From the sequence record OZ035812.1: a stretch of 42,973 nucleotides of DNA; one strand, given 5' to 3'. The position numbers and the translations under genes were made by a program. Each line of letters starts with the position of its first letter. Position 1 is the first letter of the stretch. This document shows, one piece after another, positions 4,689 through 42,460 of this stretch. The notes beneath the pieces were generated by a model. It ran no database searches. It was not told the origin of the DNA and was given only the letters and a program-made list of their open reading frames with translations. This DNA comes from Kagunavirus LM08P1.

Positions 4689-4691
4689 TAA

Positions 4692-5162: not shown

Positions 5163-5191
5163 TTGACTTTTCACTAAAAATGTGCTAAGCT
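5163..5191 (+). promoter_or_regulatory. sigma70-like promoter (TTGACT-N17-TAAGCT, extended -10 TG) driving structured RNA element A
   Basis: -35 TTGACT 5163..5168, 17-nt spacer, -10 TAAGCT 5186..5191 with TG two nt upstream; same hexamers and spacing at 36032..36060 while spacer sequence differs. Confidence 0.55.
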
Positions 5192-5197
5192 CCACCT

Positions 5198-5397
5198 GAG
5201 CTTGTGAAGTATGAACAAGCGACCGCGGCGCGGGCAGGTAACGGAGCGGGACGTAAGTCCTGAGTGTAGTTACGCTGACGCGTTCGGAAGGGCCATACTC
5301 TATTGCTTGTGTAAAAAGTAACTGGTTTACTGAGATTACGCCGTTTCTATGTTTAAATGATAAGGACTAGCGCCCCGCTTTATGGCGGGGCTTTACT
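5198..5397 (+). ncRNA. candidate structured noncoding RNA / leader element, copy A (unidentified family)
   Basis: About 200 nt between promoter and terminator hairpin (5371..5391 + T-run); shares conserved blocks with copy B (36067..36300) with hairpin-preserving substitutions; no reading frame conserved between copies. Confidence 0.5.
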
Positions 5398-6697: not shown

Positions 6698-7747
6698 ATG
6701 GCAATTACCACTATCGGCGATATCGTAACTGGCAACATCCCGGTCCTGGCGTCTTATATGACCGAGGACCCGGTAGAAAAAACCGCGTTCTTCCAGTCTG
6801 GTATTCTGACCCCGACTCCATACGCTGCCGAGATTGCCCGCGGCCCGTCCAACGTCGCTAATATTCCTTTCTGGAAAGCGATTGATACTTCTATCGAGCC
6901 TAACTACTCGAACGACGTATACCAGGACATCGCCACCCCGCGTAACGTGCAGACCGGCGAGATGATGGCCCGCGTTGCATACCTGAACGAAGGCTTCGGA
7001 CAGGCGGACCTGACTGTCGAACTGACCAGCCAGAACCCGCTGCAATCCGTAGCGTCCCGTCTGGACAACTTCTGGCAGCGCCAGGCACAACGCCGTCTGA
7101 TTGCTACCGCGCTTGGTCTGTACAACGACAACGTAGCCGCTACCGACGCTTACCACGAGCAGAATGACATGGTAATCGACGTGTCTGCTACTCTGGGCTT
7201 CGATGCGGGCGCGTTCATCGACGCTACCCAGACTATGGGTGATGCGCTGATTGGCAACGGCGGTGAAGTGCTGGGTGCTATCGCGATGCACAGCTTCGTA
7301 TATGCGCAGGCCCGTAAGCAGCAGCTTATTGACTTCATCCGTGACGCTGACAACAACACCATGTTTGCCACCTACCAGGGCTACCGCGTGATTGTTGATG
7401 ACAGCATGACTGTAGTTGGCACCGGCTCAAGCCGTAAGTTCATCTCCATCATCTTCGGTAACGGCGCTATCGGTTACGGTGAAGGTAACCCGTCCAACCC
7501 GCTGGAATACGAGCGCGAAGCGTCTCGCGGTAACGGTGGTGGTGTCGAAACCCTGTGGACCCGTAAGACCTGGTTGCTGCACCCACTGGGCTACAGCTTC
7601 ACCAGCGCGGTAATCACCGGTAACGGCACCGAGACTATCGCACGTTCTGCTTCCTGGCAGGACCTGGCGAACGCCTCCAACTGGAACCGTGTGGTTGAAC
7701 GTAAGCACGTACCGATTGCCTTCCTGGTAACTGGTGTAGGTGCTTAA
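6698..7747 (+). CDS. major capsid protein
   Basis: 349 aa ORF with RBS GAGGAA; follows scaffold; followed by strong terminator; codon usage typical of highly expressed structural gene. Fold not verifiable here. Confidence 0.7.
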   Translation: MAITTIGDIVTGNIPVLASYMTEDPVEKTAFFQSGILTPTPYAAEIARGPSNVANIPFWKAIDTSIEPNYSNDVYQDIATPRNVQTGEMMARVAYLNEGFGQADLTVELTSQNPLQSVASRLDNFWQRQAQRRLIATALGLYNDNVAATDAYHEQNDMVIDVSATLGFDAGAFIDATQTMGDALIGNGGEVLGAIAMHSFVYAQARKQQLIDFIRDADNNTMFATYQGYRVIVDDSMTVVGTGSSRKFISIIFGNGAIGYGEGNPSNPLEYEREASRGNGGGVETLWTRKTWLLHPLGYSFTSAVITGNGTETIARSASWQDLANASNWNRVVERKHVPIAFLVTGVGA

Positions 7748-10987: not shown

Positions 10988-12154
10988 ATGGCTACAACTC
11001 CTTTTAAGGGCGCGAATACCGCGCAATTCTATGTGGCGGAAGTCACCCCGGGCGTAACACCGACTAACCCGGTATGGTCGCCGTTGCGTAACACAGGTGG
11101 CGTTCCCGCTATCACCCGCGACACGCTGACATCCAACGAACTGGACGGCAGCCGTGAAACTACATCCATCCGCACCGGTAACAAACAGGTTAGCGGTGAA
11201 TACGCGATCGAGCTTAGCTCTAAAAGCCAGGACGACTGGCTGGCGGGCGCTTTAGGTTCCACGTGGCAATCAGGTGTCTCTCTGTCAGGGCTGTCGATTA
11301 CCGTCGCGCCTGCAGGTAAGACATTTACACGCTCCACCGGTAGCTTTATTTCTGACGGCGTTGAAGTAGGCGACCTGATTGCGTTTACCGACTTAACCGG
11401 CGACAACGCAAAACCATTTATCGTCACTGCGGTAGAGGCACTGGTAGTGACCGGTGCGGGCATCCAGCACACTCTCACCACAGAGACCGCTACTACTGCT
11501 GCTAAGACAGGCGACAAACTGGAAACCGGTAGCCAGTGCAAGACGTTCTCTATTCTCACCTGGTACAAAGGCCAGTGCGGCGGGACTGACGCATACACGT
11601 TAACCAAAGGCGTGGAAGTTTCTGGTTTTACCGTTGAGCAGGCCGTTAACGCGATGGTAACGGGCAGCTTCCCGTTCATCGGGCGCAGCCAGGAGATTCT
11701 CACTACGCCACCGTCTGGTTCTGACTTCTCCTCTGTTACGTTTGGTGACGAGCCGTTCTCCTCGGTCGACGTTTCCGTGTTCGATGGCTCTACGCCGTTG
11801 CGTTGCGACAGCCTGACCATCACCAACGATAACAGCGCGTCCGCACAGTTCGAACTCGGCAACTCTAACGTTGCGTTTGTGGAGCGTAGCCGCGCGGCTA
11901 ACACCTTCTCCATCTCAGGCAAGCTGTATGACATGGCTATGATTCAGAAGTTTATCAACGAGCAGCAGGTAGAGATTAACTCTATTCTGGCGGGGGTAAA
12001 CGGAGCTATGTCTTTCAGCCTGAAACGCGCAGAGCTCACGGCGGTTACACCAGAAATATCCGGCCCGGAATCAATTACCCAAAGTATAGAAGGGCAGTCC
12101 ACAGGCAACCAATACCAGTCGTCTATCGTAATTCAACGTATTAGTTACGCATAA
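10988..12154 (+). CDS. major tail protein
   Basis: ORF frame from 10982 (GTG); ATG at 10988 with RBS AAGAGG; about 389 aa, T/S/G-rich; sits between neck genes and chaperone/tape-measure pair. Confidence 0.6.
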   Translation: MATTPFKGANTAQFYVAEVTPGVTPTNPVWSPLRNTGGVPAITRDTLTSNELDGSRETTSIRTGNKQVSGEYAIELSSKSQDDWLAGALGSTWQSGVSLSGLSITVAPAGKTFTRSTGSFISDGVEVGDLIAFTDLTGDNAKPFIVTAVEALVVTGAGIQHTLTTETATTAAKTGDKLETGSQCKTFSILTWYKGQCGGTDAYTLTKGVEVSGFTVEQAVNAMVTGSFPFIGRSQEILTTPPSGSDFSSVTFGDEPFSSVDVSVFDGSTPLRCDSLTITNDNSASAQFELGNSNVAFVERSRAANTFSISGKLYDMAMIQKFINEQQVEINSILAGVNGAMSFSLKRAELTAVTPEISGPESITQSIEGQSTGNQYQSSIVIQRISYA

Positions 12155-12156
12155 AA

Positions 12157-12184
12157 CTAAGGCCCCTTTCGGGGCCTTTTTCTT
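12157..12184. terminator. bidirectional intrinsic terminator
   Basis: AAGGCCCC-TTTC-GGGGCCTT hairpin with A-run upstream and T-run downstream; separates + major tail gene from - island; almost identical to terminator at 24206. Confidence 0.65.
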
Positions 12185-12413
12185 ACTCATCAATATTGCT
12201 TCGGTATTCCCGTAACTTCTCCAGACTTTCAATTGCTTCCGCTAAGTCGGTTCCGGTGTCCTTGTGTCCGCGCAAGCCCATGCACAATAGCTTCTTCAAT
12301 GCGTGCTGTAGCGCCGGGTCGCGTATATCGAAGGCGCGGAGCACATCATAAACGTCTACTGTCATAGTGCTGCCGTGAGTGTTTGTCATTGTGCGGTTGT
12401 ATTTTGAAGTCAT
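12183..12413 (-). CDS. hypothetical protein (island gene 4)
   Basis: 76 aa; start ATG 12413 overlaps stop of upstream gene (ATGA coupling). Confidence 0.5.
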   Translation of the reverse strand: MTSKYNRTMTNTHGSTMTVDVYDVLRAFDIRDPALQHALKKLLCMGLRGHKDTGTDLAEAIESLEKLREYRSNIDE

Positions 12414-13835: not shown

Positions 13836-14162
13836 CTATTTACTTTCTGCGCCTATCGCCCACCCTGTCATTACCATTTGCAGACGGGTGGCTGTCAGCA
13901 GGCTATAGAAAGCATCTCCGTTTTTCTCTACAGAACGTATTACCGTGTATGTTACGGCTTGCGGAGGCAGGCCCGATTTACCAACCTCTACGGCTGCCTC
14001 ACACTCGCGAACGGTAGAGTCCTTAAATGCCTTTACAATAGTAGGGTCGGCTCTATCAAGCACACCAGAAGTCATAAGAACGGATTCACTAAACACCTGT
14101 TCACACGGAGACCCAAAAGTAGCAAAAGACATAAAACCAAGAGCTAACACTAATTTACGCAT
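13836..14162 (-). CDS. secreted/periplasmic hypothetical protein
   Basis: 108 aa with N-terminal signal-peptide-like segment MRKLVLALGFMSFATFG; RBS GAGGAAA; first gene downstream of promoter 14187..14220. Confidence 0.5.
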   Translation of the reverse strand: MRKLVLALGFMSFATFGSPCEQVFSESVLMTSGVLDRADPTIVKAFKDSTVRECEAAVEVGKSGLPPQAVTYTVIRSVEKNGDAFYSLLTATRLQMVMTGWAIGAESK

Positions 14163-14186
14163 AATTATTTCCTCAGTAAGTTACAG

Positions 14187-14220
14187 GTGAATAGTACCCT
14201 ATTATATTGGGGTGTGCAAG
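14187..14220 (-). promoter_or_regulatory. sigma70-like promoter with palindromic operator-like core (family 1), minus-directed
   Basis: Minus strand reads TTGCAC-N17-TACTAT with TATAATAGGG in spacer; 31 of 33 positions identical to plus-strand element at 36341..36373. Confidence 0.55.
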
Positions 14221-17410: not shown

Positions 17411-18802
17411 ATGAGTGATTTGAGATTCCCTATGTCCCTTCGACCTATAGTGTCGAAGGGGTACTCCCAGACCAGGGGGAGTAATATCTGGCGCACCGAG
17501 GTTCAGGGTGGCTTACCCCGCCAGGGGCGAGACACGTACTTCGAACCGGTGCCGATTAGCGTGACGCTCGTCGTATCGTCTCTCGGTCGTCAGGCGTTTT
17601 ATAGCTTCCTGAACAACATCGACGGCGGGGCGTCCTCGTTTATCATGCCCCATGATACGGGTATGGGCATCGAGGACCACCAGGTGCTCATCACCTCTAC
17701 GATTAGTGACAGCACCGACGACGGTAAGAACTGGGTAATCTCGTTCACAGCAACAGCAGAACGCACAGCAATTCAGGAAGACACTTGCCTTACTAAGAAT
17801 CTGCCAGATTTGTATGGTTGTTTTGGGGATTGTCTGGGTAGTTTCCTGAAAATATACGCGAACTATCAGACGACGTTCCCGCGCATCTGGAGCAATGAAG
17901 GACCTGCAGGTTACCCACCGATTAACCTTCTGGCGTCGACTCTTGATAGCCGCATTGTTTACGATGGTCCGCAGGTTTATTACATCAACCGAAACGGCAA
18001 TCTTGTGCAGTCCGCCACCAATGAATGGCCTCTTACGTTTATCGATGGGGTTGCTGTTGGGCGTGTGCCGCCGGAGTTGATGGGGGTGAATAGGGTTCTC
18101 TATTCGAGCGATATCATATCTTCTCCTTGGGTAAAAGTACGGACCGACGTAACGCTTGCTCCGGGTTATCTGACGTCTGACAATACCTTCAAATTAACAC
18201 CAACCATCGTAAATGGGGCACATTACATACAACAAAGTATAGAGGGAGAGTTTGGTGAAGATGAATTTTACACGTTCAGTTGTTTTGCCAAATCTGACGG
18301 TTACAAATACGCAAGACTACGTGCGGCTGATGGCGCCGGTTTCATATCTGACGTCGTAGTTAATTTGGAAACTGGAGACATCTATTCCGGGCAACAGAAT
18401 AGCCTAGTAACATATATCGGTGGTGGGTGGTTCAGATTTACGGAACTGATTGTCGTGCGTGGAAACGGGGCAAATAAGCTAGATATCACCATTGGGGTTA
18501 ATGATAATTCAACCCAACTAACGTATCCCGGCGACGGTTCAAGTGGGATACTCGTATCATCACCTCAAATAGAAAAATCAGAATTTGCCACTTCGCCAAT
18601 AGTAACCGATGCGTCACCGGTAACCCGACACTCGGCATCGGCAAAAGTAACCATGAACGGCGCGACAAGCATCGACATTACCTATTCCGACGGCACTGTG
18701 GTAAACGTTCCATCTGTAGATGATTACGCGACTATCCCCCAAGCGGATTCTGCGTGGGGTAGTAAATATATCACCCGTATTGATTTTAATGTGGACGGTT
18801 AA
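17411..18802 (+). CDS. minor tail / distal tail protein (putative)
   Basis: 463 aa directly after tape measure; positional inference. Confidence 0.5.
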   Translation: MSDLRFPMSLRPIVSKGYSQTRGSNIWRTEVQGGLPRQGRDTYFEPVPISVTLVVSSLGRQAFYSFLNNIDGGASSFIMPHDTGMGIEDHQVLITSTISDSTDDGKNWVISFTATAERTAIQEDTCLTKNLPDLYGCFGDCLGSFLKIYANYQTTFPRIWSNEGPAGYPPINLLASTLDSRIVYDGPQVYYINRNGNLVQSATNEWPLTFIDGVAVGRVPPELMGVNRVLYSSDIISSPWVKVRTDVTLAPGYLTSDNTFKLTPTIVNGAHYIQQSIEGEFGEDEFYTFSCFAKSDGYKYARLRAADGAGFISDVVVNLETGDIYSGQQNSLVTYIGGGWFRFTELIVVRGNGANKLDITIGVNDNSTQLTYPGDGSSGILVSSPQIEKSEFATSPIVTDASPVTRHSASAKVTMNGATSIDITYSDGTVVNVPSVDDYATIPQADSAWGSKYITRIDFNVDG

Positions 18803-22238: not shown

Positions 22239-24203
22239 ATGTCAAGCGGATGCGGTGACGTTTTAAGCCTGGCGGATTTACAAACCGCCAAGAAACACCA
22301 GATTTTTGAGGCTGAAGTAATTACCGGCAAATCCGGCGGAGTTGCTGGCGGCACTAATATCGACTACGCAACTAACCCGGTTACGCTGCAAACGCAGAAG
22401 ACAATGCCTGCTATTCTGCGCGACATCGGCTTTCAGCCAGCATCATTCGACTTCACTTCTGGGGGGACACTCACCACAGACGACCGAAACAAGGCTGTGT
22501 TGTGGCCTTTGGCCGATGGTGGTGATGGGGATTGGTATTACTGGGAGGGCGCGCTGCCGAAGGTTATCCCAGCGGCATCAACTCCGGCGTCTACTGGTGG
22601 TGTTGCCGAAGGTGCCTGGAGGCCTGTGGGGGATATTACGTTACGCAGAGAACTAGCTAGTACTAACGGAGCCCAGGCTATTGGTACCTTATCGGGCGGT
22701 AGCGTACAAGATGAATTAACTAAGCTACCCTTAACGTATATCGCCCAGCAAAAATCACCTATTACCATCACAGTAGGGCCTTCTGGTGATTTTTCAACTA
22801 TCAATGACGCGATAACTAGCGTGGCGAAGTATCAGTATGTCCTCGCTTCGGGTAATACTGGTATCCGTATCACCCTGTTAAGCGGTTTTTTGATGGAAGA
22901 ACAGGTCATTGTCGACTTTTTAAATCTTTCGTTTATAGAAATATACTCAACGTCGGTTGTGCATATATCTCGCGCGGCGCTTACAACCGCGGTTGAGGGG
23001 TACTACCCTGCCTTTTGCGCAAAAAATTCAGCGGTCCTACCAAAGATAAACGCCTCTTTTGATATGGGTTGGACCTCCGGGGCTCAAGACCAATCTGTGG
23101 CATTTCTGGCCTACGGAGCTGGGTCCGCAATATCTATTGCAAGCGGTAAAGGATGTATTAGGAGTTACGGGTTCGGCATTCTAGCGTCTAATGGCGCTAT
23201 GTTCAGCGCCGACGGTACTGTGTGGGACGATTGCGCCGGTGATGGGGTTTCTGTGTACGCAGGAGGCTCAGGCTCCGCTAAAAACGCAACGGCAAACCGT
23301 TGCTACAATGGGTTCGTTGCGAATGGTGGCGTACTTGATGCCACAAGCTCTGTTGCGAAAGGAACCAGAAGTGCTGGCTTTGCGGCCAGAAAATCTGGGG
23401 TGCTGAACGCTGAATTTGCGGATGCGCAAAACGGGGTAACGTACGGCTTCTATTCCGCGGTAAGTTCGATGCTAAACGCTACCCGTGGTAACTGTAGCGG
23501 TTGCCGGTTTGGCATATCTGCGCAGAGAAGCTCAAAAGTCGCAGCGGAAGAGGTTACAGCTGATAATTGCCTGGAAACGAATATATCAGCCCGCAGGTAC
23601 TCAGAGATTGAGGCACAAAGCTGTCATGCCGTAAACACCACTACGACTCCGCTCTACTGTATTCGCGCCAACTATTCAGGGTCGGTTGTTGTTGAGTCCG
23701 GAACTATAGGCGGGGCTTGCACACATAATATTTGCCGGGCGACCACCAACGCAGAGATACAAGCTACCGATACTAAGATGTCAGGGGCGATAGGTACATC
23801 GATTGCGGTCTTCGTTGACGAGTCGTCAAACTTTAACGGACGCAGGATGAACCTGAACCATTCAACCTCGGAGGGGACCGCAGTTCATGTTCTCCGGGGG
23901 AGCACTGCGGACATTAGCGATAGTACTATAGTTGCGGGTAATAACTATGGGGTGGTGTCCCAGTATTGCGCTAACGTAGCTGCGGATAACGCGAAAGTGA
24001 ACGGCTCTTCGGATTATAGTGTATACGCTACCGACGGCGGGAAAATATCAGTAACTAACAGTAATGTCAGGCGCGACAACTCGACAGACCAAAATACGGA
24101 CATTGTAATATCTCGTGGTGGTATTATTTCGGCATTTGGTGCATTAGGCGGCGTAAACACAACAGTTAACGCTGTATCTGAAAAAGGCATAATCTTCAAA
24201 TAA
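22239..24203 (+). CDS. tailspike / receptor-binding protein with probable beta-helix (possible depolymerase)
   Basis: 654 aa, last gene of tail module; G/S/N/A-rich repetitive segments typical of right-handed beta-helix proteins; function inferred. Confidence 0.5.
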   Translation: MSSGCGDVLSLADLQTAKKHQIFEAEVITGKSGGVAGGTNIDYATNPVTLQTQKTMPAILRDIGFQPASFDFTSGGTLTTDDRNKAVLWPLADGGDGDWYYWEGALPKVIPAASTPASTGGVAEGAWRPVGDITLRRELASTNGAQAIGTLSGGSVQDELTKLPLTYIAQQKSPITITVGPSGDFSTINDAITSVAKYQYVLASGNTGIRITLLSGFLMEEQVIVDFLNLSFIEIYSTSVVHISRAALTTAVEGYYPAFCAKNSAVLPKINASFDMGWTSGAQDQSVAFLAYGAGSAISIASGKGCIRSYGFGILASNGAMFSADGTVWDDCAGDGVSVYAGGSGSAKNATANRCYNGFVANGGVLDATSSVAKGTRSAGFAARKSGVLNAEFADAQNGVTYGFYSAVSSMLNATRGNCSGCRFGISAQRSSKVAAEEVTADNCLETNISARRYSEIEAQSCHAVNTTTTPLYCIRANYSGSVVVESGTIGGACTHNICRATTNAEIQATDTKMSGAIGTSIAVFVDESSNFNGRRMNLNHSTSEGTAVHVLRGSTADISDSTIVAGNNYGVVSQYCANVAADNAKVNGSSDYSVYATDGGKISVTNSNVRRDNSTDQNTDIVISRGGIISAFGALGGVNTTVNAVSEKGIIFK

Positions 24204-24205
24204 AA

Positions 24206-24232
24206 CTAAGGCCCCATTTGGGGCCTTTTCTC
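24206..24232. terminator. bidirectional intrinsic terminator
   Basis: AAGGCCCC-ATTT-GGGGCCTT hairpin with T-run; lies between convergent tail (+) and replication (-) blocks. Confidence 0.65.
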
Positions 24233-24369
24233 TACTCTTCTGATAACTTCTCAAGTACAAACGCCAGTTGTGCGTTAGCGGCATCTCTTTGCTGCCGTAG
24301 GCGTAGAACCTCCTCCTCAAGTTCCTTGATACGTTTTTGCAATGCCGGAATCGGGGCTATGATGTTCAT
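24232..24369 (-). CDS. small hypothetical protein (45 aa, predicted helical)
   Basis: Found manually; ATG 24369 overlaps helicase stop (ATGA) with AGGAG upstream; sequence MNIIAPIPALQKRIKELEEEVLRLRQQ... Confidence 0.3.
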   Translation of the reverse strand: MNIIAPIPALQKRIKELEEEVLRLRQQRDAANAQLAFVLEKLSEE

Positions 24370-26273: not shown

Positions 26274-26588
26274 TTATAATTCCTTATATTGTTGGGGTAT
26301 GTGCTTACTATAATAGTCTGCTATTAGGGTGTCAATCTGTTTTATCGAACCAACGACAAAAACATTCGCGCCACGTTTACGCATCCGCTCGTGCTCGCGT
26401 AACTGGTGTGGGTCTGGCTTCGTGCTTTCATCTTTCTTAACCTCAACGAACCAGATGATGCCGCCGGGGAGGATTACCAACAGGTCGGGCGCTCCGTTTC
26501 GGCCCTCATACACCATCTTACGAACGAGGCCCCCCAGGGCCTCGAATCGGTCTTTCGCGTATTTCTGTACGCGGCCCTCTTTAGTCAT
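26274..26588 (-). CDS. VRR-NUC domain nuclease
   Basis: ORF frame to 26603 (TTG); ATG 26588 in ATGA overlap with upstream small ORF; PD-(D/E)xK-type motif ...PDLLVIL...VEVKK... recalled as VRR-NUC. Confidence 0.6.
   Translation of the reverse strand: MTKEGRVQKYAKDRFEALGGLVRKMVYEGRNGAPDLLVILPGGIIWFVEVKKDESTKPDPHQLREHERMRKRGANVFVVGSIKQIDTLIADYYSKHIPQQYKEL
26307..26335 (-). promoter_or_regulatory. sigma70 promoter (TTGACA-N17-TATAGT) with palindromic core (family 2), minus-directed
   Basis: Minus strand reads TTGACA ccctaatagcagactat TATAGT; lies inside 3' end of VRR-NUC coding sequence, about 28 nt upstream of start of 26018..26272. Confidence 0.55.
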
Positions 26589-29228: not shown

Positions 29229-29252
29229 GTAAAAAGGCCCAATAAAGGGCCT
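29229..29252 (-). terminator. intrinsic terminator / attenuator hairpin between DUF2815-like gene and polymerase
   Basis: On minus strand AGGCCC-TTTATT-GGGCCT followed by TTTTT, upstream of polymerase RBS. Confidence 0.4.
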
Positions 29253-29272
29253 TAATTAAACAGATTCAGATA

Positions 29273-29905: not shown

Positions 29906-29958
29906 CTTGATTTCTCGCTTTTAAGTTTACTCCGGGAACTGCCCGGCCAGTGATTAGA

Positions 29959-29988
29959 AATATAATAGCTAACTATTCAGGTGTCAAC
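29959..29988 (-). promoter_or_regulatory. sigma70 promoter (TTGACA-N17-TATATT) with palindromic core (family 2), minus-directed
   Basis: Minus strand reads TTGACA cctgaatagttagctat TATATT; core TGAATAG-N4-CTATT; upstream of start 29905. Confidence 0.55.
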
Positions 29989-30235
29989 CCTTCCAGCCAG
30001 TTATTTTCTCAACTATCTCAATATACTTGTTGGGCCATTTCATGTTGTTTATGAATCGAAGCGCCTGTGTCTTCCACGATTTATCGCTCAGGATAGCTTC
30101 GATGTCGCGAGTTTGTGTTATACATACCGTAATACACATTAAGATAAATGTTGGTAGCGTTAGTGGCATCATAAGAACCCAGAAAACAATACACGCTATA
30201 AGCCCACCAAAAATCCTGAACGTTTTACGAATCAT
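29984..30235 (-). CDS. small membrane protein (two predicted TM helices)
   Basis: ORF frame to 30265 (GTG); ATG 30235 with AGGAGG 7 nt upstream and ATGA overlap with upstream nuclease gene. Confidence 0.5.
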   Translation of the reverse strand: MIRKTFRIFGGLIACIVFWVLMMPLTLPTFILMCITVCITQTRDIEAILSDKSWKTQALRFINNMKWPNKYIEIVEKITGWKG

Positions 30236-31473
30236 TCCAAATCCTCCTCTGTTACCTGATTCCACTCAGGACGTTTGTCGTCTGCCGTTGCGACGCATGG
30301 CGTGCCAGGCTTACGGGTAATAAAGTCTTTCAGTTCATCTTCCGACACAACTTTAACCGCTTCGGTCGGCGTCATGAGCACTTCTTTAGTCAGCTTGTCG
30401 CCGTAGAGTTCTGCCACTTTCTCCGCGTCTTTCCACGCGCGATTACCCGGGCGACCCTCAACCAGCTTGTACCCCGGAACTTTCTTACCGGAATGCAACG
30501 CGGCGGCCATAGCTTTCTCAACCTTGTCGATGTGCTGGCGCAATAACGGCAACTTCTCATACTCAGCTACGAGTTGCTCAGGGGTCAGTTCCAGTGCAAA
30601 GTCGTCTTCCAGTTCTTCCGCCAGTGCAGAGTTAACGGTTTTTGTACGCGCGGCGCACTGTTCAGAGAACCGGCACCACTGACACCCATCTACCGACGGT
30701 CTGAAGTCCGACGCTTTCAGGTTCTTCTTTCCACGGAAATAGGCGTCAAGCGCTAACAATGCACGTTTCTGCGCGAACTTAGCGAACAGTTCCAGACCTT
30801 CAACCGAGATGTCCCACTCGGACGCACCGCCAGCATACGGCTGGAAGATAACAAGACGAACAACTGTGATGTTATAACGTCTCCTGAGTCGGCGGTAAAC
30901 ACCGAGAGCGTAAAGCATTAGCTGCTTGTTTTCTTTCGCTTCGACACGATGCCGTCCCGTTTTAAGGTCGCCAATAATGAGCATGTGCTCGTCAGTGTTT
31001 GCCAGTTCCTGAACGGCAACAAGGTCGGCGGTGCCGAACGTCTCAATGCCTTCGTAGCCCGGATGCAATACCTCAGTAAGATTGACGCGCCTTTCCAGCT
31101 TGGCGTAAGTCGCTACATCGATAATCGCTTTGCAGTAATCGGTGTACTTGCGCACCTGCTCAATCATATCCGTCGTAATCAGTACCGCACCTTTCATCGG
31201 GCTTATTAGCGCCTTAATCTGGCCTTTACCTTCATCCAGCACGTAAGCACCGACTTCACGCTCTAATGGCAACGCAGTACCGCGTATATAGGCGTTGAGA
31301 TGTACCTCAGCTATGGTGTGACACGCGGTCCCTATAACGGCGGATTTACCCGAAGTGTTAGGAATATCTTTTTCACAGGCCAGTGACGCCGCGCATGACA
31401 GCCACTTTTTAGCGCCTGACGGTGACAGTAAGGCGTGTACATCATTATTGCCGCCTCGTTCTTTTAGTTTCAT
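30232..31473 (-). CDS. PD-(D/E)XK Cas4-like exonuclease (DUF2800-like) with C-terminal Cys cluster
   Basis: ORF frame to 31494; ATG 31473 with RBS GGGTGGGAG; C-terminal CQWCRFSEQC cysteine cluster typical of Cas4/AddB-type Fe-S nucleases; synteny with DUF2815-like gene and polymerase. Confidence 0.6.
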   Translation of the reverse strand: MKLKERGGNNDVHALLSPSGAKKWLSCAASLACEKDIPNTSGKSAVIGTACHTIAEVHLNAYIRGTALPLEREVGAYVLDEGKGQIKALISPMKGAVLITTDMIEQVRKYTDYCKAIIDVATYAKLERRVNLTEVLHPGYEGIETFGTADLVAVQELANTDEHMLIIGDLKTGRHRVEAKENKQLMLYALGVYRRLRRRYNITVVRLVIFQPYAGGASEWDISVEGLELFAKFAQKRALLALDAYFRGKKNLKASDFRPSVDGCQWCRFSEQCAARTKTVNSALAEELEDDFALELTPEQLVAEYEKLPLLRQHIDKVEKAMAAALHSGKKVPGYKLVEGRPGNRAWKDAEKVAELYGDKLTKEVLMTPTEAVKVVSEDELKDFITRKPGTPCVATADDKRPEWNQVTEEDLE

Positions 31474-31767
31474 GCTCTTAAACTCCCACCCCATTTAACT
31501 TTACGCGTTTTGCGCTTGTAGGCGCACGTGTCACCGCTACGGTTGAATATAATCAGCCAAGTCGAGTTGCTTACTCGAAAAGGCTGGTGACGTTTAATAA
31601 AGATAAGTCGCGCTTTACGGTTCGTCATTCTTCTACCCTCTCCACCCAAGCATCGTCAAAAGTATCAAAATCAAGATTATCGTATGCTGCGTATGCGTCA
31701 TCTACATCCAGGTATCGGCTGTGCTCTGTAGCCACGCCGTTAGTGTAAGTAAATATCGCCCAGTAAA

Positions 31768-32040
31768 TCATGCTCTGCTCTCCCACTGGTCAATTAAATG
31801 TCTTGTCTTATAGTCACAGTGCATGGCCCAGCTGTACATCGACTCAAAGACATAAAAGTCAGGTTTGGCGAATGTCGTGCGCTTAATCTGTGACACGTGT
31901 CGGCCTATATCTTTAGGCCGAGGTACTTTGCCTAAGTACGCCATCTCTTCCATCTGGTGCGCACCGGACGGCGCACGTAACAGCCATAACACCTCTGTGT
32001 TGTCCCGCCTGTCTACGGCTCGGTAGAGTTGGTAAATCAT
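31768..32040 (-). CDS. hypothetical protein
   Basis: ORF frame to 32067 (GTG); ATG 32040 with RBS GAGGGTAAA, ATGA overlap with upstream gene. Confidence 0.45.
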   Translation of the reverse strand: MIYQLYRAVDRRDNTEVLWLLRAPSGAHQMEEMAYLGKVPRPKDIGRHVSQIKRTTFAKPDFYVFESMYSWAMHCDYKTRHLIDQWESRA

Positions 32041-32240
32041 TTCTTTACCCTCACAGAATCCATCCACGCGAAAACGTCATCCATAGAAAAATCACCGTCG
32101 AAAACTTTTTGTGTTTTATCCGACTTTTGTACATACGTAGGGCGTTTATTATCTACCGCGTGGAAGCATACGAAGTTATCCGTTTCTTCTATAACCCGCC
32201 CTGAAATCATAAGACCACTTTTCTTAGCTAAAATAGCCAT
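32037..32240 (-). CDS. hypothetical protein
   Basis: 67 aa; RBS GAGGGTCGG. Confidence 0.45.
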   Translation of the reverse strand: MAILAKKSGLMISGRVIEETDNFVCFHAVDNKRPTYVQKSDKTQKVFDGDFSMDDVFAWMDSVRVKK

Positions 32241-32295
32241 ATTTCCGACCCTCAGTATGGTGCCCTCACGTATGAGGGCACCATAAGTTAAGTAG

Positions 32296-32784
32296 TTATT
32301 CTTCTTCGAAATACTTGTTCTTGATTGCCGTCAGGCGTTCCAGGTATTCGGCCAGGTCTTCGTCTTTAATCGCGGCAATCTTCATCTTCTTACCGGTGAA
32401 CTCTTCCAGCAGTTCATCGGAATCATCGCACGCGGCATCGCTCGGACCTTCATTAATCGCATCGTCGATAGCCTGAATCTGATCACGAAGAGACTGGTAA
32501 TCGACTTCTTCTTTCTCTTCTTGCGGCTCTGGCGTTGGCTCCTCTACTTTAGGTTTACGCGGCTTGCGTTTCGGCTTCTCTTCTTCTGCCGGTTTAGTGT
32601 CGACGAGGTCTTCACCTTCTACCGTGATTTCTTTTGTCGCTTCTTTCGCAACAACATCACGAACACTATCTGCGATGTTTGCATCTGCCTTAAGTTCATA
32701 CACAGGTTTTTTCGCGCTATTCGCAGCAATCAGTTCATGCGCAACTACGAAACGTTCCAGTAATTTTAAGAATTGGTCTAACAT
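32296..32784 (-). CDS. highly acidic hypothetical protein (first gene of minus-strand early operon)
   Basis: 162 aa, very high Asp/Glu content with a central KPKRKPRKPK basic patch; RBS GAGGAGAG; immediately downstream of promoter 32816..32845. Confidence 0.55.
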   Translation of the reverse strand: MLDQFLKLLERFVVAHELIAANSAKKPVYELKADANIADSVRDVVAKEATKEITVEGEDLVDTKPAEEEKPKRKPRKPKVEEPTPEPQEEKEEVDYQSLRDQIQAIDDAINEGPSDAACDDSDELLEEFTGKKMKIAAIKDEDLAEYLERLTAIKNKYFEEE

Positions 32785-32815
32785 TTGTTTCTCTCCTCTC
32801 GTTTGGTATGGGCTA

Positions 32816-32845
32816 ACTATAATAGCGAACTATTCATGTTGTCAA
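32816..32845 (-). promoter_or_regulatory. sigma70 promoter (TTGACA-N18-TATAGT) with palindromic core (family 2), minus-directed
   Basis: Minus strand reads TTGACA acatgaatagttcgctat TATAGT; core TGAATAG-N4-CTATT; divergent from HTH regulator gene. Confidence 0.55.
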
Positions 32846-32861
32846 TGGGCTTTCCTAAAAT

Positions 32862-32890
32862 AATTAATATGGTACTATTCACATATAAAC
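32862..32890 (+). promoter_or_regulatory. candidate plus-directed promoter/operator upstream of HTH regulator gene
   Basis: TAATATGG-TACTATTCA resembles family-1 core (TACTAT -10) but -35 is weak; 20 nt upstream of RBS AAGGAG of 32910..33125. Confidence 0.35.
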
Positions 32891-32909
32891 TAACTAAGGA
32901 GTAACTGAC

Positions 32910-33125
32910 ATGCAACCATCTGAACTAGGCATCCGCGTAGAACAACGCCGCAAAGAACTAGGCATCTCTCAGCGCCGTCTGGCGGTTTTGGCTGGCGTTT
33001 CCCAGGGCGCGATTAACCAGCTGGCACTCGGCGTAACTCAGGACGTCCGCCCGGCGACGCTGTTTAAACTGGCGGAAGTGCTGGAAGTAGACGCCAAGTG
33101 GCTGGCGTTCGGTGAAGGGGCTTAA
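32910..33125 (+). CDS. XRE-family helix-turn-helix transcriptional regulator (Cro/CI-like)
   Basis: 71 aa; classic HTH segment ISQRRLAVLAGVSQGAINQLALG; lone plus-strand gene between two minus-strand operons. Confidence 0.8.
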   Translation: MQPSELGIRVEQRRKELGISQRRLAVLAGVSQGAINQLALGVTQDVRPATLFKLAEVLEVDAKWLAFGEGA

Positions 33126-33140
33126 CGCCCCTTTCTTTTT
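33117..33140 (+). terminator. intrinsic terminator
   Basis: GGGGC-TTAAC-GCCCC hairpin followed by TTTCTTTTT between convergent genes. Confidence 0.5.
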
Positions 33141-33142
33141 AC

Positions 33143-35410
33143 CTATTCCAAATCCTCCGCTGTCACCACCAGCATTTCATTCGGTTCGTATATTGTCTTC
33201 GGAATCTTGTTATCCGTTATCCTGGTGTTAAGCCGGTAGCGGCCAGGTATTATCTGATTGTTTTCGTCAGTCCCCGGAACAAGATACCCGGCCTCAACCA
33301 TTTTCTTAATCTTCCCGCGTTCTATGGCTTCTTTGGAGTTAAACGCCTTTGCGTTGGGGTCTGACTGAGCGAGCTTATTCGCTGCGGCCACCGTGATACC
33401 TTCATTGCCGTTGTAGGTTCCTTCTGCCAGTTCAAACGCTGCCAGTATCGTGGCTTCCGAACTGTTGACGGCGTTCTCTACGGTTTTACGTACGTTTTCT
33501 TTACCTTCCTTTGTCAGCCCTTCTTCCCGCTCTTTCTCCTCGTCAGTTTTGAACGGCTCGAAGCCCCACGGCATCAGTACAAGCGCCTTGTGCGGTTCAG
33601 GCAGGTCGAGGTTTACGATTGTGCCGTATTCCTCTGTGCTACCCAGGAACTCAACCGCGCGATACTCTTTCGGCGGCGGGGCTTCACGGAACTGTACTGA
33701 CTCCAACACCATACCAACCGTCTTCTGTTGAGGCCCGTGCTTAAATTTAGAGTGGTATACGTTTATCTGGCGGTCGGTAGCGCGTTCGATTGTCAGCTCC
33801 ACGTCGACGCCCGCATACAGCGCCCCACTGCCACGGGCCTTCTTTCCACCCTTCGGCGTATGGTGGACAACGCCTACCGCAGCTTTAGTCGCATCACGTA
33901 CTTCTTTCAGGATGGCAATGACTTTACCCATGCCGATTGCCGTCGATGAACTGTTCTCGTCGAACTTATCAATCGTCAGGGCCAGCGTCTGGTTAAGGGT
34001 GTCGAATGCGACCATGCCAATTGGCTCGTCACCCGCAGTTTCACGCATTAACTTAATCAGGTTTTTCAGTTTTCCGACTTCGCCCATGTCGATAACATGT
34101 ACATAATCTTTACCTTCCTCGCCATATTTAGCCGCGAGTGCATCTATACGTGTGCGTGTAGCTGCGCCTCCCTCACCGTCGATATAGAAATGGTGGCAAC
34201 GCTGGGTATCCGCCCCGGCAAACCGGTATCCGGCGGCGCTCAGGTACATCATCCCCAGCGTATAGAACGATTTGTACGTGCCGGATTCCCCAACAATATC
34301 CCAGATACAATCTGACGGCATGTACCCCTCAACGACGAAATCAGCCTTTACCGGTTCCAGTAACTCGTCCTCCTCTGAGCCATCATCGTCTTCCAGGTCG
34401 TCGAGGCTGCATGAGACAGATTCACGCGCGCCCCAGCCGATAGCCTCGGCCACTTCACTGAACGGCAACCCGGTCGCATCACACGCGTATTTCCACACCT
34501 CTTTCGGTGACATGCCTTCGGTTGCCGTAATGTCGGTGTCGTGAATCATGGTTACGTTCGGCGCTTCGTAGCCCTCGCGCGGGAAGCACAGCAGGAAGTC
34601 ATCCGGGCGCGGCGTCGGGTCACTGTAGTTCTCCGCGTGTTCTGGTGTGGCGGGCATCTTAAGGCCGCGCGGCGTCATGATGCCACCGTACTCAAACGCC
34701 AGTGCTTCAAACGCATCCGTAAACGCGGTGCGTAGTTCTTCCGGTATCTGGTAACCCGATGCACTGCTAACGTCAACGGCTGGTACACCTTCCAGTAACT
34801 CTTCCGGGTCAATCAGGTCGTTACGGCGCGACCAGATAACGGTGGAGCCAACCGGCGGCAGGTACATCGGTTGCGACAGAGTGAACCCGCTGCGGTCAGC
34901 GCCCATACCTTTGAAGAAGTGCTCCAGCAATCCGTGACGAACGCGGATGATGTCACCACCTTCAACCGGACGCCCCAGCGGCATGACGACGCGAAAGCGC
35001 GGGGACTCATCGGCATGTGATGCTGTGGTGTAGAGGCACATCGCCTGGCGGCTGCGTTTAACCAGTTGCACCGCTTCCTGATACTCTTCCGTCGTTGCGC
35101 TGTCGAAGTCCAGATACGCCAGTGACGATTTGCTTACAGACGCGTCACAGCGATAGAAGAAGCCTTTACGCGCTTGCTTAAAGTCACCGGTTTCCGGGTC
35201 TTTTACGGTGCTGTGCGTCGAGTCGCACGCGGCAGTGATATAGCCCGGTGCGGTCTTCGGATTAATTCCGTCTCGAACGGCATCGAGCGGCTGGAGTAGC
35301 TCTTTCAGGTCGCCCAGTGTCGCCGTGTGTGTTGTTCTGACGTTTATATCCTTTTTCTCCGCCCGCGCGTTGCGACGTGACCACGAGTAGGATAAAATTA
35401 CATCGGACAT
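33143..35410 (-). CDS. primase / replicative helicase-type protein (N-terminal primase-like region plus RecA-like ATPase domain)
   Basis: 755 aa; Walker A-like GESGTYKS within RecA/DnaB-like region; large N-terminal domain of primase-polymerase size; RBS AAGGAAA. Domain identities from memory. Confidence 0.6.
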   Translation of the reverse strand: MSDVILSYSWSRRNARAEKKDINVRTTHTATLGDLKELLQPLDAVRDGINPKTAPGYITAACDSTHSTVKDPETGDFKQARKGFFYRCDASVSKSSLAYLDFDSATTEEYQEAVQLVKRSRQAMCLYTTASHADESPRFRVVMPLGRPVEGGDIIRVRHGLLEHFFKGMGADRSGFTLSQPMYLPPVGSTVIWSRRNDLIDPEELLEGVPAVDVSSASGYQIPEELRTAFTDAFEALAFEYGGIMTPRGLKMPATPEHAENYSDPTPRPDDFLLCFPREGYEAPNVTMIHDTDITATEGMSPKEVWKYACDATGLPFSEVAEAIGWGARESVSCSLDDLEDDDGSEEDELLEPVKADFVVEGYMPSDCIWDIVGESGTYKSFYTLGMMYLSAAGYRFAGADTQRCHHFYIDGEGGAATRTRIDALAAKYGEEGKDYVHVIDMGEVGKLKNLIKLMRETAGDEPIGMVAFDTLNQTLALTIDKFDENSSSTAIGMGKVIAILKEVRDATKAAVGVVHHTPKGGKKARGSGALYAGVDVELTIERATDRQINVYHSKFKHGPQQKTVGMVLESVQFREAPPPKEYRAVEFLGSTEEYGTIVNLDLPEPHKALVLMPWGFEPFKTDEEKEREEGLTKEGKENVRKTVENAVNSSEATILAAFELAEGTYNGNEGITVAAANKLAQSDPNAKAFNSKEAIERGKIKKMVEAGYLVPGTDENNQIIPGRYRLNTRITDNKIPKTIYEPNEMLVVTAEDLE

Positions 35411-35468
35411 GTTGTATTTCCTTCAGCAAGTAATTTGGCCTCGGCGTTCACCGCGTCGGGGCTTTCTT

Positions 35469-35759
35469 TTATCTATTAGCCAGACATTCCATCAAATGCG
35501 CGTACTTACGATAATAATCTACGACAATCTCATCACCGAAATACTGATAAACGTACGCTAAGTGGTCAGAGACATCGATGGAAGCCGACATTGTGCTGAG
35601 TCTTCGGAGACTAATCAACTGTAATTCTTCTGTAACGCAAAACGGTGAATAAGAGTCCAGCTTACAAGAAACGTTAAAGCACAACGCATATTCGCCTTGC
35701 ACTAAATAAACCATATAAGCACTGTCATTTTCTTTATCGTGGAAAATTACACCTTTCAT
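35469..35759 (-). CDS. hypothetical protein
   Basis: 96 aa; ATGA overlap with upstream HTH gene. Confidence 0.45.
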   Translation of the reverse strand: MKGVIFHDKENDSAYMVYLVQGEYALCFNVSCKLDSYSPFCVTEELQLISLRRLSTMSASIDVSDHLAYVYQYFGDEIVVDYYRKYAHLMECLANR

Positions 35760-35926
35760 TTCACGTTCTCCTTAATCCACGCCTCAACTTTATTACGGTC
35801 AAATGTACCAGGTAAACGGCGACCCATTACTTTAACGCTGCAATCAGGAAACTTTCCACTCTTAATCCAGTTATTGATTGTCTGGCGGGTGACTCCGATT
35901 AATTCTGCAACTTCATTGATAGTCAT
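35756..35926 (-). CDS. small HTH DNA-binding protein (AlpA/excisionase-like fold, putative transcription regulator)
   Basis: ORF frame to 36016; ATG 35926 with RBS AGGAGA; HTH segment INEVAELIGVTRQTINNWIKSG. Confidence 0.6.
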   Translation of the reverse strand: MTINEVAELIGVTRQTINNWIKSGKFPDCSVKVMGRRLPGTFDRNKVEAWIKENVK

Positions 35927-35955
35927 TTCGCGCTCTCCTGTGTAAGATGTATCGA

Positions 35956-35984
35956 AGTATAAGGCGGTAACTTTGTAAAAGCAA
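35956..35984 (-). promoter_or_regulatory. candidate sigma70 promoter (TTGCTT-N17-TATACT), minus-directed
   Basis: Read on minus strand upstream of HTH gene start 35926. Confidence 0.4.
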
Positions 35985-36031
35985 CCAAAACTGAACACAA
36001 AGTTACTAAGATACAAAAGATGCTACTGGTA

Positions 36032-36060
36032 TTGACTTTTACTTAAAAATATGCTAAGCT
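36032..36060 (+). promoter_or_regulatory. sigma70-like promoter (TTGACT-N17-TAAGCT, extended -10 TG) driving structured RNA element B
   Basis: Hexamers identical to 5163..5191 with same spacing but diverged spacer. Confidence 0.55.
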
Positions 36061-36066
36061 TCACTG

Positions 36067-36300
36067 AGCTTGTGAGATATCGCAAGCGACCGCGGAGCGG
36101 CAGGGAACGCAACGCGTGCCATTAGGCACTTGAGTGTAGTTCCGCTGGCGCTTTCGGAAGGGCCAAAGTCTATTGTTAATCCCGCCTAAATACCCAAGTC
36201 ACTGATAATTAAAAGTTTCTATAGTTGCCGTAAGCAAGGTGGAGAGTACTTCACTCCGCTGGGGTGGGCTAACGCCCACCCACTGCGTTGCGTACTCTTT
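36067..36300 (+). ncRNA. candidate structured noncoding RNA / leader element, copy B (unidentified family)
   Basis: Shares conserved sequence blocks with copy A; compensatory hairpin differences; ends in long hairpin (36242..36296) followed by CTTTT; no conserved ORF. Confidence 0.5.
36242..36300 (+). terminator. terminator-like long hairpin closing RNA element B
   Basis: GAGAGTAC...GTGGGC-TAAC-GCCCAC...GTACTCT followed by TTTTAAG. Confidence 0.45.
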
Positions 36301-36340
36301 TAAGAAACGAAAGAATCACAACGGCAACGTAACTTTTCTC

Positions 36341-36373
36341 TTGCACACCCCAACATAATAGGATACTATTCAC
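36341..36373 (+). promoter_or_regulatory. sigma70-like promoter with palindromic operator-like core (family 1), plus-directed
   Basis: TTGCAC-N17-TACTAT with CATAATAGG in spacer; 22 nt upstream of RBS GAGGAGTGAGGG of 36395. Confidence 0.55.
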
Positions 36374-36394
36374 TTATAGAAACGAGACAGAGGA

Positions 36395-36592
36395 GTGAGG
36401 GTTATGTTTAAACGTGGTCAGTTGGTTAAAGCTGTAAATAGCAATTATTTCATTGTTGAAAGCGAGTCTGCAGTTTTTCCGGGGGCTTATAGGGTAAGTT
36501 TTCTCGGGGAAAGATTAGGAGCAATAACCTGGTTCCGTGGAGATGAGCTAACACTCATCGGCAACAATTTTAAATTCAAAGGGGCGAAGTGA
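36395..36592 (+). CDS. hypothetical early protein
   Basis: 65 aa; strong RBS; first gene after promoter. Confidence 0.5.
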   Translation: MRVMFKRGQLVKAVNSNYFIVESESAVFPGAYRVSFLGERLGAITWFRGDELTLIGNNFKFKGAK

Positions 36593-37775: not shown

Positions 37776-37808
37776 CTTGCACACACAGATATAATAGACT
37801 ACTATTCA
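37776..37808 (+). promoter_or_regulatory. sigma70-like promoter with palindromic operator-like core (family 1), plus-directed
   Basis: TTGCAC 37777..37782, 17-nt spacer containing TATAATAG, -10 TACTAT 37800..37805; upstream of ATG 37835. Confidence 0.55.
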
Positions 37809-40428: not shown

Positions 40429-40449
40429 TCTGTTTTCCACAATGACTAG

Positions 40450-40478
40450 TTGACTATTACCATCGACCCTATTATATT
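40450..40478 (+). promoter_or_regulatory. candidate sigma70 promoter (TTGACT-N17-TATATT) containing CCCTATTATAT core
   Basis: Upstream of gene starting 40512; shares CCCTATTATATT with family-1 elements. Confidence 0.45.
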
Positions 40479-42344: not shown

Positions 42345-42367
42345 GCCCTCTACGGAGGGCTTTTCTG
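42345..42367 (+). terminator. intrinsic terminator
   Basis: GCCCTC-TACG-GAGGGC hairpin followed by TTTTCTG. Confidence 0.6.
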
Positions 42368-42460
42368 TACATCCCGCCCAATCCCCTTATATAATCCCTT
42401 TAGACGCGTAGGGCGCGTCTGGTGCGCTCTGATGGTCAGACGCATATGCAAGGGGATTCT

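Follow-up and report, generated by a model that had tools for sequence, protein, structure and literature searches.

Small phage repressors of the 434 type recognize operators that are 14-bp dyads of 5-4-5 geometry, with conserved outer bases and a non-contacted centre, and in 434 the glutamine at the first position of the recognition helix reads A1. In other systems, namely P1 C1, mycobacteriophage L5 gp71 (with its "stoperators") and Streptomyces phiC31 c (with conserved inverted repeats), a repressor acts on dispersed operators to silence a genome as a whole. Here, we describe a 71-amino-acid (aa) helix-turn-helix (HTH) regulator encoded on the plus strand at 32910-33125 of Kagunavirus LM08P1 (Guernseyvirinae; sequence record OZ035812.1), together with a 14-bp dyad, AATAG-N4-CTATT, that recurs at promoter-like sequences throughout this near-whole phage genome, the 42,973 bases of which are hereafter called the window. 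On balance, the evidence leans towards this protein being a dimeric Cro-like repressor that would regulate its own synthesis and globally throttle the early and middle sigma-70 promoters.

Within the Guernseyvirinae literature, we found no described operator set or regulon for this motif and no link to an HTH protein, only a listing of "promoters" obtained with PHIRE. In that listing, made for fBC-Eco01, the "phage RNAP promoters" PP1-PP7, with the consensus tgAATAGTa-ccTATTat-T, represent the same motif at orthologous positions, including one before the HTH gene; the passages of the paper that present these sites do not discuss dyad symmetry, an embedding in sigma-70 promoters or a connection with the HTH protein (Arch Virol 2023, PMC9825357). 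Cro-type repressors with dispersed operators are known as a kind, and the novelty of the system proposed here lies in its occurrence in a virulent phage and in the location of the operators inside core promoters.

The regulator and a dyad repeated at promoters

The regulator gene, which was identified from the list of open reading frames (ORFs) and from Pfam, is preceded by an AAGGAG ribosome-binding site (32896-32901) 8 nt before its ATG. Its product matches Pfam HTH_3 (XRE; PF01381) over residues 11-65 with 47.2 bits (gathering cutoff 23, E 2.3e-12) as well as transcription-regulator families of PHROG at E ~1e-10, and its best sequence match in PDB is phage 434 Cro, likewise a protein of 71 aa (E 5.4e-7, ~38-40% identity), in keeping with the Cro/CI-like assignment made in a preliminary description of this DNA. 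An AF2 model with a pLDDT of 84, which is of moderate confidence because it was built from a single sequence, predicts five helices (residues 5-17, 21-28, 32-39, 48-57, and 62-66). When this model was searched against PDB with Foldseek, the top match was 2cro (40% identity, TM 0.73/0.79), and further matches included 1pra and 3cro along with the 434 repressor, SinR, HipB, P22 c2, and controller proteins of restriction-modification (R-M) systems. As modelled, the regulator has the fold of the 434 Cro and 434 repressor DNA-binding domain, i.e., a compact bundle of five helices, the second and third of which make up the HTH, and its recognition helix reads SQGAINQL. GenBank names for the gene vary between "transcriptional repressor", "repressor", "Cro", "XRE family regulator", and "hypothetical".

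With at most one mismatch, AATAG-N4-CTATT occurs 13 times in the window against 1.07 occurrences expected, a count that none of 100 shuffles reached. A blind census of 5+5 palindromes with spacers of 0-8 nt also ranked this dyad first, with eight perfect copies, the runners-up being terminator stems with three copies each. Nine of the dyads, namely the eight perfect ones and an imperfect one called O2 below, are located on promoter-like sequence, and all nine lie in the non-coding ~10% of the genome, where they precede start codons by 24-58 nt (every promoter and start site given here is predicted from sequence). Two geometries can be distinguished. In class A, seen at 36357, 37793, 3110, 5067, 14190, and O2, the dyad covers the -10 hexamer, as in TTGCAC-N10-AATAGnnTACTATT, and the units concerned are rightward small early genes, three minus-strand moron-like units within the structural block, and the regulator gene itself. 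In class B, seen at 29964, 26312, and a site called O1 below, the dyad fills the promoter spacer, as in TTGACA-N4-AATAG-N4-CTAT followed directly by TATAGT, and the sites head three leftward replication and recombination operons. These three class B promoters are the sole sequences genome-wide that match the sigma-70 consensus at 11 of 12 positions, each with the dyad in its spacer. Because the dyad is found in at least nine core promoters, the regulator would act as a global regulator rather than as a local switch.

Among the plus-strand class A sites, the one at 36357-36370 stands at the head of the rightward small-gene block (36395 onward) and the one at 37793-37806 belongs to a second promoter within that block, both promoters being TTGCAC-17-TACTAT. 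On the minus strand, the operator at 3110-3123 (promoter TTGCAG-17-TACTAT) lies 26 nt upstream of the start codon of a 94-aa gene (2799-3083) that it is predicted to control, the one at 5067-5080 (TTTACA-18-TACTAT) precedes a 104-aa gene (4711-5025), and the one at 14190-14203 (TTGCAC-17-TACTAT) precedes an operon of an Imm-like gene (13836-14162) and a metallophosphoesterase gene. The two class B operators remote from the regulator, both on the minus strand, serve VRR-NUC and SNF2 helicase genes (26312-26325; promoter TTGACA-17-TATAGT at 26335-26307) and DUF2815 and DNA polymerase genes (29964-29977; promoter TTGACA-17-TATATT at 29987-29959). A possible weak operator, ACTAG-TTGA-CTATT (40445-40458, plus strand), overlaps the -35 of TTGACT-17-TATATT (40450-40478); it is kept in Kagunavirus and reads AATAGTTGACTAGT in Jerseyvirus. 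One-mismatch copies were also found at 5158, where the copy overlaps a promoter -35, at 37470, in an intergenic spacer, and at 21317, inside a tail gene, the last probably by chance. Separately, the 14190 dyad, an ortholog of which is kept in Jerseyvirus (locus L003, position 15200), also occupies the spacer of a promoter-like sequence on the plus strand, GTTACA-17-TATATT (14180-14208), that faces the tail-assembly chaperone and tape-measure genes, so that a single operator may govern a pair of divergent, overlapping promoters, of which one would serve late genes.

Two of the nine sites lie upstream of the regulator gene, one in each of two divergent promoters, as the preliminary description had proposed. 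O1 (32821-32834, symmetric on both strands) is a perfect dyad, AATAGCGAACTATT (AATAG-CGAA-CTATT), inside the spacer of the predicted leftward promoter TTGACA (32845-32840)-18 nt-TATAGT (32821-32816). This promoter (32816-32845, minus strand) matches 11 of 12 consensus positions and would drive the gene of a 162-aa protein and the nuclease module downstream of it. O2 (32866-32879, both strands) is a one-mismatch dyad, AATATGGTACTATT (AATAT-GGTA-CTATT), over the -10 of the regulator's own predicted promoter (32870-32878, plus strand), an extended -10 of the form TGgTACTAT. O2 covers the hexamer TACTAT (32873-32878), which is preceded by TGg, and its G-to-T mismatch is what creates the TG of the extended -10; the promoter was earlier called weak, a fair description since it combines an extended -10 with no good -35. 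The regulator transcript, with a predicted start near 32885, would be monocistronic and ~250 nt long, and ends at an intrinsic terminator found by a terminator scan (33114-33134, plus strand), the loop of which contains the stop codon; the same terminator is annotated in Jerseyvirus Shelanagig and in fBC-Eco01 (as H33). Because this terminator has a T-tract on the plus strand only, leftward transcripts of the primase gene should run antisense through the regulator gene and its promoter. Hence, the layout of an autoregulated repressor that had been read from this region stands insofar as a dyad occupies both divergent promoters, but the dyads are members of a genome-wide set and not a local operator pair.

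To assess conservation, 38 IMG/VR loci were gathered with the regulator protein as query, and operator positions were compared in 33-37 of them. The regulator is 96-100% identical in 36 loci, 80% in one (L042), and 40% in another (L043), and SQGAINQL is unchanged in the 37 Kagunavirus-type loci with the exception of SQSAINQL in L036. Across six orthologous operators, mean half-site entropy was 0.00-0.23 bit (at most 0.11 at five of the six), against 0.25-0.83 bit for the central 4 bp and 0.15-0.86 bit for the 10-nt flanks. At O1 (37 loci, 25 distinct sequences), AATAG and CTATT are constant (0.00 bit) around a centre of 0.57 bit that reads CGAA, CTAA, TGAA, CAAA, CGAG, or CTAG. The 26312 site is a perfect dyad in 30 of 33 loci, with 0.05-0.11 bit in the half-sites versus 0.83 bit in the centre, and the 29964 site is perfect in 35 of 37. 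At O2, the identical G-to-T mismatch is present in 37/37 loci, where the TG is constant and the following base is G, A, or C. Promoter function does not explain the invariance of the left half-site, because spacer bases are not read by the sigma-70 holoenzyme. Fixed half-sites around a free centre are instead the footprint expected of an operator for a dimeric HTH protein with a non-contacted centre, as judged from these alignments, and the pattern at O2 fits a sequence that may double as an extended -10 promoter and a lower-affinity operator.

A proposed Cro-like circuit compared with described systems

The kinship with 434 Cro and the shared 14-bp 5-4-5 geometry favour the regulator as the reader of the dyad. 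In the circuit that we propose, a regulator dimer would bind AATAG-N4-CTATT. After injection, the host sigma-70 polymerase would fire all class A and class B promoters, and the regulator itself would be synthesized slowly, from an extended -10 promoter that lacks a -35 and is opposed by leftward antisense read-through (a delay that we infer). With rising dimer levels, the perfect dyads would become occupied and host RNA polymerase would be excluded from the core promoters, so that transcription of the replication operons, small early genes, and moron-like units would cease. The perfect O1, at the adjoining leftward promoter, would fill first and the imperfect O2 last, at a higher concentration, resulting in a negative autoregulation that caps the regulator's own synthesis. 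Dyad-less promoters would stay active, namely TGTACA-18-TATAAT upstream of the terminase genes (42366-42395) and two TTGACT-17-TAAGCT promoters, and as a side effect superinfecting relatives would be repressed.

This arrangement resembles 434 in several ways. The proteins are of equal length, and 434 Cro is the best match of the regulator among its solved relatives at the level of both sequence and structure; the operators are 14 bp long with 5-bp outer half-sites that begin with A and a variable, presumably non-contacted 4-bp centre; and the sites overlap core promoters and are of unequal quality (perfect O1, imperfect O2). Unlike in 434, a divergent cI partner and a tripartite OR are both lacking, O1 and O2 being 45 bp apart at back-to-back promoters; the half-site is AATAG rather than ACAA, and the sites are spread over at least nine promoters of a virulent genome instead of two operator clusters of a temperate one. 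Likewise, no divergent CI-type gene that shares a multi-site operator, as in a bistable CI/Cro switch, was found. With lambda Cro the regulator would share the role of a small repressor, made early, that dampens PL/PR-type early promoters as well as its own production as the lytic cycle advances, although lambda Cro has a winged alpha/beta fold as opposed to the five-helix 434-type fold modelled here, the predicted regulon here adds replication operons and moron-like genes, and the gene is convergent with the primase operon (its Cornellvirus ortholog does lead an operon).

As with P1 C1, L5 gp71, and phiC31 c, one small repressor would act on many short sites at or near promoters. Those proteins are, however, immunity repressors of temperate phages, whereas no lysogeny apparatus was found here, and P1 and L5 sites are asymmetric whereas every strong site here is a symmetric dyad inside a core promoter. 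Finally, the controller (C) proteins C.AhdI, C.BclI, and C.Esp1396I are also small dimeric HTH_3 proteins, R-M controllers appear among the structural matches of the regulator, and the concentration-dependent timing that C proteins achieve through paired dyads of unequal affinity at their own promoter is likewise proposed here. C proteins differ in that they first activate and later repress just one operon, which adjoins R-M genes: here no endonuclease/methyltransferase pair adjoins the regulator, the relatives have no R-M genes annotated in the corresponding region, the targets are many, and dyads at -20 to -7 or within the spacer predict repression only.

The 2 kb surrounding the regulator are 98% identical to Kagunavirus LM08P2 (42,999 bp) and 89-93% identical to many Escherichia Kagunavirus phages including K1G, K1H, K1ind, and fFiEco03. 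Its neighbours are the primase/helicase gene and the divergent gene of the 162-aa protein, which has no Pfam match and belongs to PHROG 3127 (function unknown). The regulator is the only plus-strand gene of the 24.4-36 kb minus-strand block, a peculiarity remarked on earlier that the annotated relatives fFiEco03 and Shelanagig bear out, the ortholog being the sole plus-strand coding sequence between the tailspike gene and the rightward small-gene block; a doubtful small ORF at 29984-30265 is on the minus strand in an annotated relative with the same insert. Shelanagig, a Jerseyvirus, has the same gene order, a regulator that is 52% identical, and nine matches to AATAG-N4-CTATT (1.13 expected), which stand at orthologous promoters. 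In VSiA, a Cornellvirus, and in the related PhiSTP2 (a record unclassified within Guernseyvirinae), the ortholog is ~40% identical and is the first gene of a rightward operon, followed by the primase/helicase gene on the same strand, i.e., it occupies the classical cro position. Comparison of window 33143-36016 with the corresponding loci (L004 19992-22826 and L005 19992-22643) revealed a relative inversion of the primase-to-HTH_17 segment between genera, so that in Kagunavirus and Jerseyvirus the primase, a 96-aa gene, and an HTH_17 gene are on the opposite strand and the regulator is convergent with the primase. This inversion accounts for the "lone plus-strand gene" layout.

The exact motif was not found in Cornellvirus, and a blind palindrome census there yielded no enriched exact 5+5 dyad. 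A related dyad, A[AT]TA[CG]-N4-[CG]TA[AT]T, is nevertheless present in the same promoter geometries, with five copies in PhiSTP2 (0.33-0.5 expected) and three in the 28.5-kb partial VSiA locus (0.3 expected, but within the shuffle range, the maximum of which was 5). One of these dyads lies in the spacer of the leftward promoter adjoining the regulator, where the half-sites are kept and the centre differs between the two genomes. The glutamine at the first recognition-helix position is kept in all three genera.

Several observations weigh against the regulator as a global, dyad-binding repressor. The dyad beside its gene is weak evidence, because nearly every early and middle promoter carries one. 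Although their half-site is identical, Kagunavirus (SQGAINQ) and Jerseyvirus (SQSLITH) have recognition helices that disagree at 4 of 7 positions, and the Jerseyvirus helix is nearer to that of Cornellvirus (TQSAISH), though the Cornellvirus dyad differs. Across the three genera, helix and half-site showed no consistent pairing, the half-site being shared by Kagunavirus and Jerseyvirus and shifted in Cornellvirus. Kagunavirus RNA-seq, moreover, places the Imm-like and DNA polymerase genes in the "late" class (PMC12645636), which is not an obvious fit to an early shut-off. The same dataset includes a middle-class "specific DNA binding" gene, 004, that adjoins an AAA-domain gene, and an early-class "Helix-turn-helix domain" gene (PMC12645636). 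Gene 004 could be the regulator, and these class assignments would agree with the proposed circuit. This is the sole Kagunavirus transcriptome, and its sampling at 5-120 min, for a latent period of 30 min (PMC12645636), is in our judgement too coarse for the timing model to be tested with it.

Alternative readers and roles of the dyad

A second candidate reader is encoded at 35756-35926 on the minus strand, where an early gene specifies a 56-aa HTH_17 protein of the excisionase/AlpA type (Pfam HTH_17, E 1e-9; PHROG 66). Under this explanation, which we consider unlikely, HTH_17 would bind the dyad as an early-to-middle switch, either activating or repressing, and HTH_3 would have its target elsewhere or act only locally. 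The phylogenetic pattern counts further against HTH_3 here: between Kagunavirus and Jerseyvirus, which share the exact motif, HTH_17 is 79% identical and HTH_3 52%, and HTH_17 was not detected in Cornellvirus, which is without the exact motif, so that presence of the protein matches presence of the motif. HTH_17 also leads the leftward early operon, its probable ortholog is among only four "early" genes in K1B4 RNA-seq, and MerR-type and Q/AlpA-type factors bind between -35 and -10. However, an excisionase-type HTH of 56 aa is normally a monomer on direct repeats, whereas perfect 5-4-5 inverted repeats are characteristic of dimeric HTH_3 proteins of the 434/P22 type, and the class B promoters need no MerR-type activation because they match 11 of 12 consensus positions with spacers of 17-18 nt. 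Pseudomonas aeruginosa AlpA binds as a single molecule to a 6-bp non-palindromic element and requires an N-terminal ring domain for the RNA exit channel; its HTH contact residues extend to number 142, which makes it well over 100 aa long, and a sigma-dependent pause element at about -1 to +5 is a further feature of this type (PMC9371919). Antitermination of the Q/AlpA type was therefore ruled out for HTH_17 by its size of 56 aa, which leaves no room for a ring domain, and by the symmetry of the dyad. No convincing promoter was found for the leftward HTH_17-primase operon, the best candidate being TTGCTT-17-TATACT at 35984-35956 (8 of 12 positions, no dyad). Cornellvirus discriminates between the two candidate binders, because it has the HTH_3 ortholog and related core-promoter dyads without any HTH_17, and we rank HTH_17 below HTH_3 as the reader of the dyad.

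Granting that HTH_3 binds the dyads, it might do so for immunity, in an episomal carrier state (pseudolysogeny) or as a block to superinfection, which appears quite improbable to us. Dispersed operators on most promoters do resemble the P1 C1, L5 gp71, and phiC31 c regulons, and an Imm-like superinfection gene lies within the same regulon. In addition, record CP088689.1 (locus L044), from an E. coli blood isolate from Korea, is a complete Kagunavirus genome deposited as a circular, non-mobilizable 44,086-bp "plasmid pC16EC0033-2". It matches window 30229-36389 and has the HTH_3 gene and dyad operators but no plasmid-maintenance genes; it may represent a carrier state or simple carry-over, and as a lone record it is explainable by lysate carry-over or contamination.

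Since the window is a near-whole phage genome, integrase and partition genes could be sought genome-wide, and, as stated in the preliminary description for integrase, none were found. Two complete relatives have no integrase, recombinase, partition, or CI-like gene annotated, and the annotation of the relatives shows neither a second XRE/CI gene nor a plasmid-maintenance gene, the latter being absent also among the window ORFs scanned. A Pfam scan of integrase-sized window ORFs yielded no recombinase, the matches being Mu F, tail tube, metallophosphoesterase, and DUF2800/PD-(D/E)XK nuclease, and the ORFs 6698-7747 and 17411-18802 having no Pfam match. Prophage searches covered complete E. coli genomes, PLSDB, and GTDB representatives: window 30000-36400, which includes the regulator region, was found as a prophage in 0/5,426 complete E. 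coli genomes, and none of 185,579 GTDB species representatives contained a relative of more than 50% identity. Neither integration or plasmid-maintenance functions nor prophage occurrence, as would characterize a temperate immunity repressor, were thus encountered, CP088689.1 being the only exception. Published descriptions call the Kagunavirus group lytic, and the autoregulated weak promoter shows no obvious positive feedback or bistability partner. With no integrase, CI-like partner, or prophage copy, a lytic-cycle role is likelier than that of a lysogeny repressor, in line with the initial proposal. We likewise give little credence to the more general idea that a self-contained silencing circuit of this kind permits a repressed episomal state or repressor-type immunity in Kagunavirus and Jerseyvirus without integrase or partition genes. 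The sole match in the E. coli genomes was a 35-nt type I-E CRISPR spacer of strain 2017.09.02CC (NZ_AP025214.2; L045 1501-1535), identical at 35/35 positions to window 33073-33107, i.e., the 3' part of the regulator gene.

It is also very unlikely that the recurring motif is itself a promoter element, either as a phage-specific consensus or as a by-product of -10-like AT-rich hexamers, rather than an operator. This is how the same seven sites, found by PHIRE, were read in fBC-Eco01, where they were assigned to a phage-encoded RNA polymerase in the passages concerned (PMC9825357). The right half-site does overlap the -10 in class A (TACTAT) or abut it in class B (CTAT next to TATAGT), and the extended form ATAATAG...CTATTAT holds -10-like hexamers on both strands. 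Yet the annotation of the complete relatives examined includes no RNA polymerase gene, and none was matched among the subset of window ORFs scanned; the sites bear ordinary -35 and -10 hexamers of the sigma-70 type. Despite its spacer position, for which sigma-70 has no base preference, the left half-site does not vary, and the dyad occurs in two registers relative to the -10, which would be intolerable for a polymerase-recognition element. Dyad symmetry around a free 4-bp centre is, in contrast, typical of a dimeric binding site.

A host transcription factor of E. coli or Salmonella as the reader of the dyad, which would tie phage promoters to the physiology of the host, is highly improbable: the motif is identical in E. 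coli and Salmonella phages despite 52% HTH_3 identity, but we know of no E. coli regulator with the consensus AATAG-N4-CTATT (FNR and CRP boxes share the 5-4-5 shape, not the sequence), and Cornellvirus, also on Salmonella, has a different half-site, which points to a reader that is encoded by the phage and changes along with the phage lineage.

Other sequence features and implications

Outside of the dyads, the window contains a duplicated promoter and leader on the plus strand (5163-5391 and 36033-36290), each copy with one of the TTGACT-17-TAAGCT promoters classed as dyad-less. The conserved leader copies are ~110-200 nt long, ~80% identical to each other, and contain no ORF. Downstream of copy 1, an intrinsic terminator (5372-5391) immediately precedes the capsid-gene block, whose first gene lies at 5416, and copy 2 precedes the rightward small-gene block. 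RNAalifold, applied to 12 distinct Kagunavirus versions of the leader, predicted a 5' hairpin and a long-range helix, in which 4 of 22 predicted pairs change on both sides and still pair, most clearly 38:97 (UA, CG, AU) and 48:86 (AU, GC, UA); an apical hairpin also shows compensatory changes, as judged by eye. No Rfam family reached its gathering score anywhere in the window, and a sub-threshold match to ctRNA at 36000-36400 (E 0.068) was taken as chance. The leader is a candidate for a small RNA gene or for a put-like antitermination or attenuation leader. Directly upstream of the promoter of copy 1, at 5144-5171, everted half-sites CTATT-cg-AATAG are followed by a one-mismatch dyad, AATAGTTGACTTTT, that overlaps the -35, an arrangement absent at copy 2 (36033).

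Near-identical GC-rich hairpins of the form AAGGCCCC-loop-GGGGCCTT were found at 2772-2800, 4690-4718, 12151-12191, 24200-24240, and 29231-29259. They scored as terminators on both strands at 2774, 4692, and 12159 and on the minus strand only at 24208, and the one at 29231 was unscored. Because several of these hairpins bracket the minus-strand inserts in the plus-strand structural block, late transcription to the right must repeatedly start anew or escape termination. An 11-bp GC-rich hairpin with a T-run, located at 35437-35463 between the start of the primase/helicase gene and the 96-aa gene within the minus-strand block, was scored as a terminator on the plus strand; no plus-strand transcription unit is evident there. 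Finally, the window has ~250 bp of extra sequence compared with fFiEco03 at 29906-30231 (a gap of 326 nt here and 86 nt there), which holds a minus-strand gene of 93 aa (29984-30265) between the nuclease and DUF2815 genes and is present in only a subset of Kagunavirus genomes.

Guernseyvirinae, including Kagunavirus and Jerseyvirus, rank among the most frequent proposals for phage therapy and biocontrol of Salmonella and E. coli, and at least one phage lifestyle screen counts transcriptional repressors as a marker of lysogeny. A carrier state, if true, would matter when the safety of these phages is assessed. The published reading of the motif as "phage RNAP promoters" is corrected by the present analysis, and the repressor, operators, and promoters may offer compact parts for synthetic biology. 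Overall, the regulator gene is most likely part of a lytic-cycle regulon, for which an operator consensus and a map of at least nine promoters are provided here.

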